Shown: positions 4,469 to 22,353 of the stretch, one piece after another
Layout: each line of letters starts with the position of its first letter
How positions within the stretch are numbered: position 1 is the stretch's first letter
Source: a virus
Taxonomy: Duplodnaviria > Caudoviricetes
DNA length: 64,000 nucleotides
IMG/VR virus record: IMGVR_UViG_3300037722_000745
Span: 224,001 to 288,000 of that record
Strand: one strand, 5' to 3'
The notes under the pieces: generated by a model
The model's database searches: none
Told to the model about the DNA's origin: nothing
What the model saw: only the letters and a program-made list of their open reading frames with translations
Position numbers and translations under genes: made by a program

Positions 4469-4496
4469 AAGCTATCTCTAGCGGAACGGCCTTCAG

Positions 4497-4544
4497 TGTC
4501 AGGACGTGGGATCGAACCACGCTGGCTTCCAAACAAGTCCTGAC
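4497..4544 (-). ncRNA. mini tRNA-like RNA (acceptor stem plus T-arm)
   Basis: GTCAGGA/TCCTGAC stem, CGTGG-TTCGATC-CCACG T-arm, only 16 nt between them. Confidence 0.6.
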
Positions 4545-4563
4545 GTCTCGCCGCAGCGAGCAA
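4545..4563. repeat. short-loop hairpin repeat (family B)
   Basis: GTCTCGCCGCAGCGAGCAA abutting the 5' end of the mini tRNA. Confidence 0.8.
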
Positions 4564-4592
4564 AGCAAATAGTTGTCTGGGGTGCAGACTAG

Positions 4593-6912: not shown

Positions 6913-7863
6913 CTAACCCACATGCCGAAACACTACAAGACGACCTTCCCGCTCCGCCTGGCGAATGACCGGCGGCAGAGATTCTAAACTCAACCAAGCA
7001 TCCCCGCGGGTGCCGCCCGCAAAATCCGTGTCGTCGTAGTGTGCCGTCAGACAGATGCCCGCGTCGATGATCTGTAGAGTCCGAGCGTCGCATGTGCACT
7101 CGTAACGCCGCCCACCCATCCGGAACCGCACGACCATCTCGTTGCGTCGCGGGGCCTGCCGGTGATCGAGATACTCAGCCTCACCAACCGCGAGAGCCGC
7201 CCGAGCCGCGGTCCCGAAATCCTCTTGGGCCAACGCCCGCCGGCCAGCACCATCACCGAGCTGCTCCGCGATCTCCCGACGACGGGTTTCCCGCTGCCGT
7301 TCCTCTTCCTCACGCTGAAGGCGTTCCGCCAGCTCCCGCCGACGCCGCTCCGCCTCCAACCGCCGCCACCGCTCAAGCGTGAAGGCGACATCCAAAGCCG
7401 GCGACACCTCTCGGATATCAGCTAGCGTATCCTTGCCGTCCAGAAAGGCCGTCTGCACCTCGAACTCGGGCCCCAGAGGCATTTCTTGCTGGATGTAGAC
7501 CAACGGGCCGTCCTCGGACACGCGGCCCGCAGAGACCCGTACGAAGCGATCTAGGCCCGGTTCGATGAGATGGACCCGCTCCGTCTCGCTCTTAAAGGAG
7601 GCGAGCTTCCTTTGCGAAGCCGACACGAGCCGATCGCCGACCAGGTAGCCTACCTCTCGGTACTTGAGCTGCTCCGGCTCGGGATCACACACCTCCTGGA
7701 CCCGAGCCGTCCGACCGCCCACCGAGAACCGAACCCAGCCATGCTCCGCCGGCAGCCGACCCTCGATCACCCACCGACGTGGGCCCGACCGGAGGGACCT
7801 ACCCCCAATCCAAGGCGCGACAAGCGTCTCGCCTTCAGTCGCAAGTAAGTCTCTCCAACCCAT
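6913..7863 (-). CDS. conserved protein of the Ubl operon (coiled coil, Cys-containing C-terminal domain)
   Basis: Start MGWRDLL; charged coiled coil; RYECTCD...DAGICL; 5' part paralogous to 8330..8713. Confidence 0.75.
   Translation of the reverse strand: MGWRDLLATEGETLVAPWIGGRSLRSGPRRWVIEGRLPAEHGWVRFSVGGRTARVQEVCDPEPEQLKYREVGYLVGDRLVSASQRKLASFKSETERVHLIEPGLDRFVRVSAGRVSEDGPLVYIQQEMPLGPEFEVQTAFLDGKDTLADIREVSPALDVAFTLERWRRLEAERRRRELAERLQREEEERQRETRRREIAEQLGDGAGRRALAQEDFGTAARAALAVGEAEYLDHRQAPRRNEMVVRFRMGGRRYECTCDARTLQIIDAGICLTAHYDDTDFAGGTRGDAWLSLESLPPVIRQAEREGRLVVFRHVG
7583..7618. repeat. solitary CRISPR-repeat-like unit (family A) inside a CDS
   Basis: GTCTCGCTCTTAAAGGAGGCGAGCTTCCTTTGCGAA. 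Confidence 0.8.
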
Positions 7864-17864: not shown

Positions 17865-17937
17865 CTCTCGGGTTTTTGATTGTGTTTCTGATGGGCGGAA
17901 TATACACCGCAGGCAGCATGCCCCCGAGCGCCCAAAG

Positions 17938-18028
17938 CGGAAGCCGGAGAACTCGAATCCCAAACGACCCCGAGAGGCCGTTCCCACCGCTTTCCAAGCG
18001 GGTCCAGTCCCTAACTGGTTCAGCTTCC
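17938..18028 (-). tRNA. tRNA-Ser(GGA)
   Basis: Loop TTGGAAA, long variable arm, G73, atypical D-arm. Confidence 0.75.
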
Positions 18029-18050
18029 AAGGGGAGCCTGTTGAGGGAAT

Positions 18051-18158
18051 CGTCTCGCCGCAGCGAGCAATGAGTGCATGACTACACCAAGCCAACAAGC
18101 GCTGATGGAAGCAGGCCAGTTGCGTGACTACGTAGTGGACCTGTCGGGAGTTGAACCC
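18051..18158. repeat. 108-bp cassette, copy 1 (family B hairpin, GGTGTA motif, tRNA-Ala 3' end)
   Basis: Matches 19438..19545 with 2 mismatches. Confidence 0.9.
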
Positions 18159-18212
18159 CGATCCCGGTTACCACCGTACCAAGGTGGTGCTCTGCCACTG
18201 AGCTATACGGGC
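18136..18212 (-). tRNA. chimeric tRNA-Thr(GGT) with tRNA-Ala-derived 3' end
   Basis: 5' GCCCGTA does not pair with 3' CAGGTCC, which is identical to the tRNA-Ala end at 19523-19545. Confidence 0.7.
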
Positions 18213-18548
18213 GTTGAACCGAAAGACAACCCTCTCTCTAGCTTGCCTCCTAGACTCCATATCGCGTAAGGCATGCCTCAGAATTTGAAGGTTGACGATC
18301 GCATCGTAAAGCTCCCGCTCCTTCGCTCCGCTGTCTATAAGCCTCTCTAGTTTATCGATCTCTCGTCGGATCCGATTCCGATCTTGCAAACGCTTAGGGA
18401 GCCGCAAGCCTGTGGTCCGATCCTGACGCTCAACCTTCCTAAGTTGCTGCTCGATATAGTCCACCTCTTTTGGGGTCAAGGATCGAGGCAGTAGTCCAGG
18501 CCGAGGGAAAGTCACCTCAAAAGGACGGTCCGGTTTGGGTACCGGCAT
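18168..18548 (-). CDS. hypothetical coiled-coil protein
   Basis: ORF adjoining upstream gene; tail reads into tRNA. Confidence 0.6.
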   Translation of the reverse strand: MPVPKPDRPFEVTFPRPGLLPRSLTPKEVDYIEQQLRKVERQDRTTGLRLPKRLQDRNRIRREIDKLERLIDSGAKERELYDAIVNLQILRHALRDMESRRQARERVVFRFNARIAQWQSTTLVRW

Positions 18549-19054
18549 CAGATCTGACCTAACACCTTTCGAACCAACCGCATGAACGTCAGTCCAGCGA
18601 GTTCAGGATCTGTGCTGAATGCGGTCTCCGTGATAGACCGTTTGAAGTCAGCTCCGCTCAAGGGTTTGTGAGGCACATACCCGAACGAAAGTAACGGAAG
18701 ACCGCCCCGGATTGACAACATCAACGTGAAGGTCTCCAAAGCGGGTCGAGTGGAGAAGTAGTAGTACAGCTTCATCCGCTGCTGGGTAGCATTCATGTAG
18801 AAACGATCGCCATGGAACTTCCGCCTGAATGCTGAAAGGGCCTTGGGTAAGAGGATCTCGATAGACAACTTGGCCGCATCAAAGACCTCTTGCGCAGACG
18901 TTGGCACCCCGACTTCAGGAGGACCCCAACGAGCTTGCCGGGCCATCCTCTCGGACCACGGAACGACCCATGACGGGATTTCCGGCTGCCAGTCCCCAAG
19001 GGCTACCTGGTAACCCCACCTGGCCGCCACGCGCTTTGCAAGAGTACCCATCAC
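18548..19054 (-). CDS. hypothetical (putative virion) protein
   Basis: N-terminus LAKRVAARW. Confidence 0.7.
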   Translation of the reverse strand: MMGTLAKRVAARWGYQVALGDWQPEIPSWVVPWSERMARQARWGPPEVGVPTSAQEVFDAAKLSIEILLPKALSAFRRKFHGDRFYMNATQQRMKLYYYFSTRPALETFTLMLSIRGGLPLLSFGYVPHKPLSGADFKRSITETAFSTDPELAGLTFMRLVRKVLGQI

Positions 19055-19084
19055 CTCGTGCAGTGTGATGGGTAGATTAGTGAG

Positions 19085-19158
19085 GCTACCTGACGGGACT
19101 CGAACCCGCTCTCACCGGACCCACAATCCGGCCGCCATCCTATCGGCGCTCAGGCAGC
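19085..19158 (-). tRNA. tRNA-His(GTG)
   Basis: Loop TTGTGGG, G-1 and C73. Confidence 0.85.
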
Positions 19159-19258
19159 AGAAGTATCACAACGGTCCCGGGCCGGGTGCGACGAGCTAGC
19201 CACACGCGCCGAGTAGCTAGCTCGGACGCGCTGCGTTCTGTGCCCCGTTGTGACACGG

Positions 19259-19341
19259 TGCGAACGAGAGGAGTCGAACCTCCACGACCTCGCGATCAGC
19301 TGGGTTTGAGCCAGCCGCGTCTGCCATTCCGCCACGTTCGC
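19259..19341 (-). tRNA. tRNA-Leu(CAA)
   Basis: Loop CTCAAAC, long variable arm. Confidence 0.9.
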
Positions 19342-19355
19342 GTGAGCACTACTCA

Positions 19356-19391
19356 GTCTCGCTCTTAGGGGAGGCGAGCTTCCTTTGATCC
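19356..19391. repeat. solitary CRISPR-repeat-like unit (family A)
   Basis: GTCTCGCTCTTAGGGGAGGCGAGCTTCC, 14 nt upstream of tRNA-Leu(CAA). Confidence 0.85.
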
Positions 19392-19437
19392 CATACAGGA
19401 AATCCTTCTTGCAAGCTACGGTGCTGGAGACAGGAGT

Positions 19438-19545
19438 CGTCTCGCCGCAGCGAGCAATGAGTGTATGACTACACCAAGCCAACAAGCGCTGATGGAAGCA
19501 GGCCAGTTGCGTGACTACGTGGTGGACCTGTCGGGAGTTGAACCC
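19438..19545. repeat. 108-bp cassette, copy 2
   Basis: See 18051..18158. Confidence 0.9.
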
Positions 19546-19591
19546 GCAAACTCTCCTTGCAAGGGAGAGCCCTGACCCGTCAGACAAGCCC
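19520..19591 (-). tRNA. tRNA-Ala(TGC), reduced D-arm
   Basis: Loop CTTGCAA, G3:U70, CCA. Confidence 0.75.
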
Positions 19592-19595
19592 ATTT

Positions 19596-19676
19596 AGGTC
19601 CGAGGCGAATTGTCGACTCCGCGTCTCCAGCTTCCGTACGCAATAGCTGGCGCTCTAACACTGAGCTACTCGAACC
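19596..19676 (-). ncRNA. tRNA-like RNA with 14-nt anticodon loop
   Basis: 8-bp GGTTCGAG/CTCGGACC stem, normal D-arm, CCAGC-TATTGCGTACGGAA-GCTGG, altered T-loop. Confidence 0.55.
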
Positions 19677-19678
19677 AG

Positions 19679-19750
19679 CGGAGCCGAGGGGACTCGAACC
19701 CCCCTCACTGGCGTGACAAGCCAGCCGCCTCACCCGATGCGTACGGCTCC
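19679..19750 (-). tRNA. tRNA-Asp(GTC)
   Basis: GGAGCCG/CGGCTCC, loop TTGTCAC region, G73. Confidence 0.85.
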
Positions 19751-19754
19751 GTAA

Positions 19755-20009
19755 GTCCCACTCTTGATGGAGGTGGGCTTCCGTTGTGACCGTGCGGATT
19801 TCGGAGATGACGCTGAAGCCGTCATCGGTCCCACTCTTGATGGAGGTGGGCTTCCGTTGTGACTTCGCTCCGATCGCAATCCCGCAGGATCGCGACCAGC
19901 CGTCCCACTCTTGATGGAGGTGGGCTTCCGTTGCTGCCAGGCAGGACGGCTCGAAGTGGCTAAGATGATGTTGGTCCCACTCTTGATGGAGGTGGGCTTC
20001 CGTTGCTGC
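19755..20009 (-). CRISPR. CRISPR mini-array, 4 x 36-nt repeats, 3 spacers (37, 38, 36 nt)
   Basis: Repeat GTCCCACTCTTGATGGAGGTGGGCTTCCGTTG(TGA/CTG)C at 19755, 19828, 19902, 19974; orientation inferred from leader position and tRNA strand. Confidence 0.95.
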
Positions 20010-20170
20010 AGTGCGCTCAAAAAGACCTAAAATTTCCAAAGAGCTGAGAGCCGGATTGCGAGAGCCTCTGCAAACTCCCGCTAAATCCGACTCCATGGAG
20101 AGTACTACACTGTTCACAGAGAGCGCAAGACCCTAAATTCATTGTCTTGCGAGCGATCCCCGGGCTCCAG
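20010..20170 (-). promoter_or_regulatory. putative CRISPR leader
   Basis: Non-coding, AT-richer, near-IHF-consensus ATTCATTGTCTTG. Confidence 0.55.
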
Positions 20171-20356
20171 GCGTCACCGAGGCTCTCGCGTTCCGATGCC
20201 GTCCAACAAGGAAACTCCACGTCCCGGCGAAGAGTTGAGAGCATGGGCAGTACCGTGCCCACAAGGGCCAGTCCTCTCGCTCAACCCCGCGAAGTCGAGC
20301 TGTTTCAGGAATGTGACACGGGTTTTGGTTGATGCTGGCCAAACATGACTACCCAG

Positions 20357-20432
20357 TGGAGCCGGCGGGGATCGAACCCGCCGCAAAGCCGCATTGCAAG
20401 TGCAGCTCGCCCCCGCCAACCGATACGGCTGA
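20357..20432 (-). tRNA. tRNA-Ala(TGC)-like, first two acceptor pairs broken
   Basis: Loop CTTGCAA, T-arm normal, TCAGCCG/CGGCTCC. Confidence 0.6.
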
Positions 20433-21399: not shown

Positions 21400-21605
21400 T
21401 TAGCTACGCCAGCAGAAAACGCTAGAGTTCTCACACCGGTCCGCACTCTAGCAGCGGCCCTACATACCCCGGGCCGCCAGCCTAGCTTGGCAGCCCACCA
21501 GGGGCCTGGTGTCAGGCGGGACGCCGTCCGAATACCTCAGAGCTTTTGACCGGGCTAGAGAGCCCAAGATGAGGGTCATCGTTCAGCATCGACCGGTGGA
21601 GAAAA

Positions 21606-21644
21606 TGGTAGCGACGGAGGGAGTCGTCTCGCCTCAGCGAGCAA
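21606..21644. repeat. family B hairpin (21626-21644) fused to a tRNA T-loop-to-CCA fragment (21606-21625)
   Basis: Minus strand TTGCTCGCTGAGGCGAGA-CGACT-CCCTC-CGTCGCT-ACCA. Confidence 0.8.
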
Positions 21645-21659
21645 TCAAGTTGGCGGCCA

Positions 21660-22216: not shown

Positions 22217-22236
22217 TTGTTTGGTTGCGGGAGCCG

Positions 22237-22272
22237 GTCTCGCTCTTTCAGGTGGCGAGCTACCACGGTTTT
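22237..22272. repeat. CRISPR-repeat-like unit (family A variant) between duplicated tRNA-fMet 3' ends
   Basis: GTCTCGCTCTTTCAGGTGGCGAGCTACC; GTTGCGGGAGCCGG at 22224 and 22281. Confidence 0.8.
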
Positions 22273-22281
22273 TCAAACCAG

Positions 22282-22353
22282 TTGCGGGAGCCGGAATCGA
22301 ACCGACGAGGCTTGGGTTATGAGCCCGAGTTGAGGGCCAACACTCTTCCCGCG
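22282..22353 (-). tRNA. tRNA-fMet(CAT), degenerate D-arm
   Basis: C1:A72 mismatch, GGG/CCC in anticodon stem, loop CTCATAA. Confidence 0.75.

Follow-up and report, generated by a model that had tools for sequence, protein, structure and literature searches.

A duplicated cassette in a huge-phage tRNA array places a CasPhi crRNA handle before tRNA 3' ends and may be a solitary guide-RNA gene

The CRISPR systems of huge phages almost all lack Cas1 and Cas2 (PMC7162821). CasPhi, the nuclease of the type V-J arrays of such phages, processes its own precursor CRISPR RNA (pre-crRNA), has been used with synthetic guides made of a 25-nt repeat and a 20-nt spacer, and has the protospacer-adjacent motif (PAM) 5'-TBN-3'; in heterologous tests, the most active form of guide was a lone CasPhi-2 repeat with a spacer after it (PMC9942878). 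Viral genomes also carry solitary repeat units (SRUs), including the RNA anti-CRISPRs (Racrs), in which a lone repeat lies downstream of a promoter (Camara-Wilpert et al., 2023; PMC10651486). Here we analyzed a window of 64,000 nucleotides, corresponding to bases 224001-288000 of a 323-kb IMG/VR virus record (an uncultured metagenomic contig, estimated to be 68% complete), from a huge phage that encodes its own miniature CRISPR nuclease, CasPhi/Cas12j. Our analysis centers on a 101-nt cassette that occurs twice in the tRNA array of this phage, ends in the CRISPR RNA (crRNA) handle of the nuclease, and is followed each time by a tRNA 3' end. With a probability of roughly one half, we propose that this cassette is a solitary crRNA-type gene of the phage's own CasPhi/Cas12j that would be transcribed, loaded and aimed at related phages. 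Positions are those of the window unless given as genome positions, and the features of the locus are listed in Table 1.

To compare the two copies, we combined a repeat search, an alignment and our own position count. This revealed a 113-nt repeat (18046-18158 and 19433-19545; 97% identity) with three differences between the copies: 18134/19521 (T/C), which changes the encoded CCA to CTA in copy 1; 18077/19464 (G/A), which falls between the motif TGGTGTAG and the hairpin; and 18049/19436 (T/C). A preliminary description of this DNA had delimited a 108-nt cassette (18051-18158 and 19438-19545) with two differences, and exactly two are found within that span. The order it gave for the minus strand also holds: the remainder of a tRNA-Ala T-loop with the 3' end (20 nt, from T-loop nt 57 to the encoded CCA, or CTA in copy 1), a 43-nt spacer, TGGTGTAG, 9 nt, a 21-nt hairpin and a tRNA 3' tail. 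As had been stated, the repeat begins and ends within T-loop sequence: the left end begins with GGGTTC, common to tRNA-Ala and tRNA-Thr, and the right end stops in the GAYTCC of the tails, the copies diverging from 3-5 nt past the hairpin. These are the only two full copies in the record; a third copy, restricted to the 45-nt part with motif and hairpin, is present at genome 11450-11494 (98% identical).

The hairpin gives the cassette a meaning that the preliminary description, which rightly reported its presence as a "family B hairpin", had missed. It is the crRNA handle of the phage's own 36-nt CRISPR repeat, of which it comprises the 3' 21 nt; 20 of the 21 nt are identical to the repeat of the array, the match covering the 3' 20 nt of the latter. 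The hairpin has 17 copies in the genome: seven form a regular array with a period of 73-74 (genome 217705-218164, about 6 kb before the window) whose 36-nt repeat ends ...GATTGCTCGCTGCGGCGAGAC, a two-repeat mini-array is located at genome 194554-194644, and there are seven lone handles, six of them inside the window. Directly upstream of the seven-repeat array, a 718-amino acid open reading frame (ORF) matches CasPhi-2 (PDB 7lys) over its whole length (E 2.3e-159); it is the sole cas12j copy in the record and lies about 24 kb from the cassette. In the alignment of this ORF with CasPhi-2, the acidic residues of the DLG, EDL and NAD(I/L)D motifs, which we take to be the RuvC catalytic triad, are kept.

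The phage handle has the layout of the Cas12j-2 repeat, which ends ...CGATTGCCCCTCACGAGGGGAC and consists of GATTGC, stem, loop, stem and GAC (PMC11048056). The bases U-18, G-17, A-2 and C-1, singled out in the handle of the Cas12j3 structure (PMC8298400), are all present. Every 21-nt handle copy retains the stem and the protein-contacting flanking bases, variation being found mainly in the loop, and in copy 1 the handle hairpin is the minimum-free-energy fold. There is no repeat-spacer-repeat structure at the cassette, which has a single half-repeat and no second repeat of the same family downstream.

As for the direction of the duplication, copy 2 stands in its native context and copy 1 is the recipient, because the Ala-type 3' end pairs with the Ala 5' end at seven of seven positions (including G3:U70); this holds for no other 5' half. 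In copy 1, the claim of a chimeric tRNA was borne out: the 5' acceptor strand of tRNA-Thr(GGT), GCCCGTA, forms three of seven pairs with the Ala-type CAGGTCC in the normal register. ARAGORN calls the chimera only with a shifted register and a 6-nt T-loop, and its Rfam tRNA score (33.3 bits) is just over the gathering score of 29 bits, most tRNAs of the array scoring 42-70. The seven-pair acceptor stem, five-pair T stem and 7-nt T-loop of a functional tRNA are missing from it, and to judge from its sequence tRNA-Thr(GGT) is now a probable pseudogene. Copy 1 is thus best read as an insertion of 101 nt (18052-18152) between C56 and G57 of the Thr(GGT) T-loop. The sole homology available for such a move is the T-loop sequence that both tRNAs already shared, GGGTTC and GAYTCC (6 nt on each side), and it can be accounted for by a short-patch conversion from one T-loop to the other or by a double template switch. 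The suggestion that T-loops are recombination points is therefore supported for this event, while one duplication does not show that it applies generally.

Comparison with related genomes fits this history. In the related huge phages L016 and L017, whose tRNA arrays are syntenic with this one, Thr(ggt) is still intact and located near Ser(gga), and the tRNAs are not interspersed with handles; therefore, the insertion is derived in the lineage of this phage. No relative with the cassette, or with a vacant Thr allele, was found in IMG/VR or in JGI metagenomes, and cas12j is absent from the examined stretches of L016, L017 and a third relative, L014.

We then considered the sequences in the guide position. 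Besides the tails of the two cassette copies, our analysis identified a third fusion of a handle (21626-21646) to a tRNA tail, with different upstream sequence. Each of the three tails corresponds to a tRNA 3' end from nt 57 onward, this being the position that follows the T-loop TTC. Tail 3 matches the 3' end of Leu(caa) of L016 at 17 of 18 positions, and TTC precedes the sequence there. Tail 2 is closest to Leu(cag) of L016 (15/18); with the Ala 5' half it forms two of seven acceptor pairs by hand count, and its best-pairing 5' halves do not include Ala. For tail 1, the nearest sequence is Gly(gcc) of the phage itself, with 15 of 18 positions identical and three mismatches.

Tail 1 had been described as foreign, which is probably incorrect, as it looks like the old 3' end of the Thr gene itself. 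When the Thr 5' part and tail 1 are combined, ARAGORN returns a canonical cloverleaf (TTCGATT loop, 5/7 acceptor and 4/5 T-stem pairs, and U73 followed by CC), and the rebuilt gene is retained to a higher threshold than the chimera; with tail 2 or tail 3 substituted, nothing is found. The GGCTCC ending is also present in the other Thr tRNAs of the phage and in Thr(ggt) of the relatives (U73). These comparisons make it likely, though they do not prove, that tRNA-Thr(GGT) once ended in tail 1.

The motif TGGTGTAG, which the preliminary description had taken for a promoter, is found 24 times on the minus strand against 6.2 expected (about 4-fold). An ATG opening an ORF of at least 60 amino acids follows it at 12 of 31 sites, in 10 of these 12 at a distance of 8-13 nt, against a random background of 10.8% for any start 3-40 nt after the motif. 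It is also located just after tRNA 3' ends, both in this phage and in a related phage. Examples are found at 897, 13705, 15325, 18089 and 19476, and the motif is present in L016 as well. These statistics suggest that TGGTGTAG is probably a promoter element of this phage group that would give very short leaders or none (near-leaderless transcripts). The gap between motif and handle is 9 nt, and genes start 8-13 nt after the motif; at this usual distance, a transcript would therefore start on handle positions -22 to -17, in agreement with the predicted start at the hairpin. Taking the promoter as predicted, the handle has the placement of an SRU, a solitary repeat in a viral genome downstream of a promoter.

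The third motif-and-handle module (genome 11450-11494; L012:2451-2495, minus strand) starts right after the stop codon of the convergent RNase HII gene rnhB (L012:1758-2450; Pfam PF01351, 2e-30) and points into it, and the sequence in its guide position is antisense to the end of rnhB. Because there is no downstream gene to drive at this site, the module resembles an independent small-RNA gene.

Under the reading that we favor, the donor would be a handle located behind tRNA-Ala that had been fused to an orphan Leu-like tRNA 3' end at T-loop nt 57. The stretch from tRNA-Ala nt 57 to the last base of the handle would then have been copied into the Thr(GGT) T-loop by a short-homology event, template switch or gene conversion, with GGGTTC as the left and GAYTCC as the right arm. 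This would have broken tRNA-Thr(GGT), leaving it with a non-pairing Ala-type 3' strand, and would have placed its old 3' end at the position of a CRISPR spacer. An RNA starting at the handle, or within a few bases of it, would carry 23 nt of tRNA tail, and its 3' end could be trimmed by the RNase P cut at the 5' end of tRNA-Ser. Once loaded into CasPhi, such an RNA would recognize the uninterrupted tRNA gene of related, competing phages, in which the same 20 nt follow TTC, a CasPhi-type PAM. The phage's own locus has GAC before tail 1, where the uninterrupted tRNA gene has the TTC that fits the PAM, and would not be recognized because of this GAC. Within the 323-kb record, matches of at least 17 nt to a tail or an array spacer are confined to its own locus, and self-targets are thus absent from the record.

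Several results weigh against this proposal. Exact scans of one genome per GTDB species returned no hits for TTC plus tail 2 and two chance non-tRNA hits for TTC plus tail 1, by which we rejected host tRNA genes as targets, and tail 1 has no hits in IMG/VR. The TTC coincidence is weak, TBN being a loose PAM, and one junction is not significant; moreover, the three junctions of a handle with nt 57 may all descend from one fusion, with crossovers in GAYTCC able to swap the tails. Between tail 1 and the Thr 5' part, 9 of 12 pairs form and three are mismatched although the cassette copies are 98% alike, and five of 41 tRNA 5' halves, Thr(GGT) included, reach at least nine pairs (Gly-tcc has 10, and Arg-acg2, Leu-taa and Gly-gcc tie at 9). 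Since nine pairs are not unusual among the 41 halves, the ARAGORN rebuild was not accepted as proving that tail 1 stems from the Thr gene itself. A scan of 17900-19800 for sigma-70 sites (-35 and -10 hexamers with 16-18 nt spacing) found none; a sigma-70 promoter was accordingly rejected, which counts against the promoter idea. In free-RNA folds, two of the handles, those in copy 2 and in the third fusion, favor alternative pairings with their tails. Finally, handles are also located before protein genes, both in this phage (976 and 11636, by our own reading of the flanks) and in a relative (L014/L024), which suggests a wider role in transcripts.

Table 1. Features of the cassette locus and its surroundings (window positions).
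Feature	Position	Strand	Remarks
Cassette, copy 1 (101 nt, read as inserted)	18052..18152	-	two substitutions relative to copy 2
Copy 1, Ala-type T-loop remainder and 3' end	18133-18152	-	
Copy 1, spacer	18090-18132	-	
Copy 1, TGGTGTAG	18082-18089	-	followed by a 9-nt gap before the handle
Copy 1, CasPhi/Cas12j crRNA handle	18052..18072	-	21 nt, CATTGCTCGCTGCGGCGAGAC
Tail 1	18029..18051	-	23 nt, GATTCCCTCAACAGGCTCCCCTT; from tRNA nt 57 to the first base of tRNA-Ser(GGA)
tRNA-Thr(GGT), 5' part	18153..18212	-	extends from the 5' acceptor strand to the T-loop TTC (nt 54-56); severed from its 3' end; ARAGORN
tRNA-Ser(GGA)	17937..18028	-	directly 3' of tail 1; Thr(ggt)...Ser(gga) order conserved in L017; ARAGORN
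Cassette, copy 2 (donor)	19439..19539	-	Ala 3' end, spacer, TGGTGTAG (19469-19476), handle (19439-19459)
Tail 2	19416..19438	-	GACTCCTGTCTCCAGCACCGTAG, begins GACTCCTGTCTCCAGCACC; orphan tRNA 3' end from nt 57
tRNA-Ala(TGC) no. 1	19520..19591	-	donor context; atypical (4-nt D-loop, G3:U70, encoded CCA); ARAGORN
Third handle-to-tail fusion	21603..21646	-	fused at nt 57; tail 3, GACTCCCTCCGTCGCTACCA
Conserved gene, 168 amino acids	18548..19054	-	between the two copies; no Pfam, NCBIfam or PHROG match
Second-family (long-loop) repeat hairpin	19356..19383	-	14 nt before tRNA-Leu(CAA); stem covaries; 13 genomic copies

The wider role just mentioned leads to an alternative that we consider rather unlikely: the handle may be a tag on transcripts instead of a guide, marking the 5' ends of phage RNAs such as the tRNA-Ser and tRNA-Leu/His precursors, where CasPhi or the hairpin itself would bind, trim or stabilize them, the tails being scars. 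It would account for the roughly ten scattered handles, some of which stand just before a start codon (976 and 11636), and for the handle of L014/L024 that is followed by GGAGA and ATG; that CasPhi cleaves its own pre-crRNA (PMC9942878) also agrees with it. The identical module at genome 11450 argues otherwise, as it points into a convergent gene end and has nothing to drive. In addition, a CasPhi bound to a handle will take the next ~20 nt as a guide, so that even a tag would be compatible with the guide activity that we propose.

It is improbable that the cassette is neutral debris, left by a microhomology accident in a decayed tRNA array with handles that are dead fragments of CRISPR repeats. 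Weak or broken tRNAs are indeed numerous nearby (Ala no. 1 with 24.7 bits, Ala no. 2 without an Rfam hit, and the uncalled gene at 19597-19675), and the insertion destroyed a tRNA that the relatives kept. Dead fragments would not be expected, however, to preserve the stem and the protein-contacting flanks in all copies of the handle, to share a 45-nt motif-and-handle part that is 98% alike in three places with wholly different flanks, or to repeat between motif and handle the very spacing found between motif and gene start.

By analogy with TnpB, the ancestor of the Cas12 nucleases, the cassette could also be a natural CRISPR homing element, or minimal gene drive. In copy 1, ...GGGGTTC is followed by 101 nt ending in the handle and then by GATTCC..., which is the placement of a TnpB/omegaRNA element: the handle lies between the T-loop TTC, as the PAM, and the sequence that follows it, and would carry a guide against uninterrupted alleles. 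In a mixed infection, intact copies of the tRNA gene in sibling or related phages would be cleaved by CasPhi and would then acquire the cassette through recombinational repair templated by the interrupted allele. TnpB/omegaRNA logic would thus be carried out by a 101-nt non-coding element acting in trans, with the T-loop halves as universal homology arms. We regard this as a long shot, because the single move documented does not require cleavage and the search for a vacant allele found none.

A role as a decoy, by which the lone handles would titrate away the CasPhi of rival phages or a similar nuclease of the host, appears very improbable. With a solitary repeat that closely follows a predicted promoter in a viral genome, the locus has the layout of SRUs and Racrs (PMC10651486). 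The handle belongs, however, to the phage's own CasPhi, which appears active from its sequence and would be poisoned too; the Racrs described are mimics of host repeats that show no association with cas genes (PMC10651486); and the handle is shared with just one other IMG/VR contig and a few metagenome contigs, where it occurs singly and in unrelated contexts. Lastly, a wrong join at the 113-nt repeat, conceivable in an uncultured metagenomic contig with a repeat near read or k-mer length, is extremely improbable as the source of the second copy or its flanks, given that the copies differ at three positions, that the two sides of copy 1 can be joined into a single Thr gene and the Ala-type 3' end of copy 2 agrees with its Ala flank (a swapped join would give the opposite), and that the Thr(ggt)...Ser(gga) order across copy 1 is that of the relatives.

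Turning to the surroundings of the cassette, ARAGORN predicted 42 tRNA genes and a transfer-messenger RNA (tmRNA) gene, all those of the record being on the minus strand within 455-23829. Ala no. 1 scores 24.7 bits in Rfam, under the gathering score. A second tRNA-Ala(tgc) (20356-20432, minus strand) has two unpaired positions atop its acceptor stem and no Rfam tRNA hit, and the phage may be without any fully standard tRNA-Ala. The 3' end of tRNA-Val(gac) (1651-1726; ...TTCAATTCCGACCAGGTCCACCA) is identical at 17 of 21 positions to the Ala-type 3' end (19520-19545), and Ala no. 1 may itself be an older chimera. Between tRNA-Asp and tRNA-Ala, there is a tRNA-like gene missed by ARAGORN (19597-19675, minus strand; Rfam tRNA 33.7 bits); its 7-bp acceptor stem (GGTTCGA/TCGGACC) is perfect, its anticodon loop comprises 14 nt and its T-arm is degenerate.

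Other junctions of hairpins and tRNA sequence were observed on the minus strand. At 4495-4565, a Cas12j handle (4545-4565) abuts, with no spacer, a tRNA-like minihelix of about 50 nt that has an acceptor stem (GTCAGGA/TCCTGAC) and a TTCGATC T-arm, and lacks the D and anticodon arms. At 22224-22353, tRNA-Met(cat) is followed by a 44-nt insert with a hairpin of the long-loop type and then by a duplicate of the last 13-14 nt of the tRNA (CGGCTCCCGCAAC), a sequence that is also preceded by TTC within that tRNA; this locus adds to our caution in counting the handle-to-tail junctions as independent. Directly downstream of the Cas12j array there is an RtcB-family RNA ligase gene (genome 215972-217375; L011:1973-3376, minus strand), which may be relevant to tRNA or guide-RNA repair.

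The long-loop hairpins form a second family with the layout GGAAGC, stem, 11-nt loop, stem and GAC, and with compensatory stems (CCAC/GTGG, TCGC/GCGA and TCAC/GTGA). Four of its repeats form a mini-array with a period of 72-74 (19755-20015, minus strand), and lone copies are found at 7583, 14574, 16876, 19356, 22473, 22941 and 62423, some of them 4-14 nt before tRNA-Asp, tRNA-Arg(tct) or tRNA-Leu(caa). No matching nuclease gene and no second cas12j for this family is present in the record.

A search for a mobility gene between the cassette copies found two ORFs, neither with a match in Pfam, NCBIfam or PHROGs. One of them encodes the 168-amino acid protein of Table 1, which has nine homologues; those that are not identical to it share 44-63% identity. 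The family has an invariant FYM.ATQQ..KLYYYF motif, and in the alignment the protein of this phage is without about 45 residues that the others have. Members of the family are also located inside the tRNA arrays of related huge phages (L016:10001-10585 and L017:756-1289).

If the RNAs led by a handle are real guides, CasPhi guides would also be made outside the array, as single promoter-driven units that need no 5' processing and have their 3' ends trimmed by tRNA enzymes. A guide would then be created without spacer-acquisition machinery, simply by the landing of a handle beside a conserved sequence, which would help to explain how huge phages without Cas1 and Cas2 gain new specificities. The duplication itself documents a move by short T-loop homology within a phage tRNA array that destroyed a tRNA gene, and even if the units are mere tags or scars, CRISPR handles would still be mobile, reused parts in the genomes of huge phages.

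Compared with the type V-J CasPhi arrays of huge phages (PMC7162821; PMC8298400; PMC9942878), the cassette has the same nuclease family, the same handle, no trans-activating crRNA (tracrRNA), the order of handle then putative guide and a predicted T-rich PAM. It differs from them in having no repeat-spacer periodicity, only the 3' 21 nt of the repeat, a promoter-like motif of its own, a tRNA 3' end in the guide position, and a location inside a tRNA gene. The resemblance to viral solitary repeat units and Racrs (PMC10651486) is in the solitary repeat downstream of a promoter, here a promoter-like motif; Racrs mimic host repeats and inhibit, whereas the repeat of the cassette is the phage's own and the matching nuclease is present.

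Homing by TnpB and omegaRNA in IS200/IS605 elements (10.1101/2023.03.14.532601; 10.1101/2023.11.20.567912) is alike in that the element sits after an adjacent motif (here TTC), the scaffold abuts the flank, the flank would be the guide and only the vacant site could be cleaved. Unlike those elements, the cassette is non-coding and contains no transposase or nuclease gene (cas12j being located 24 kb from it), a vacant allele was not found, and its one documented move is explained by microhomology and not by cleavage and repair. In the engineered polycistronic tRNA-gRNA (guide RNA) arrays (reviewed in PMC4835450 and PMC5175371), a guide RNA adjoins a tRNA, as the putative guide does here, so that RNase P or RNase Z would define its end; those are synthetic Cas9 constructs, in contrast to this natural phage locus, where only the 3' side (tRNA-Ser) is placed for trimming. 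Among described systems, the compact arrays of huge phages (PMC7162821) and the solitary repeat units and Racrs of viruses (PMC10651486) come nearest; the cassette differs from them in its use of the phage's own handle, its half-repeat, its own start motif, its location inside tRNA genes and its documented copy event.

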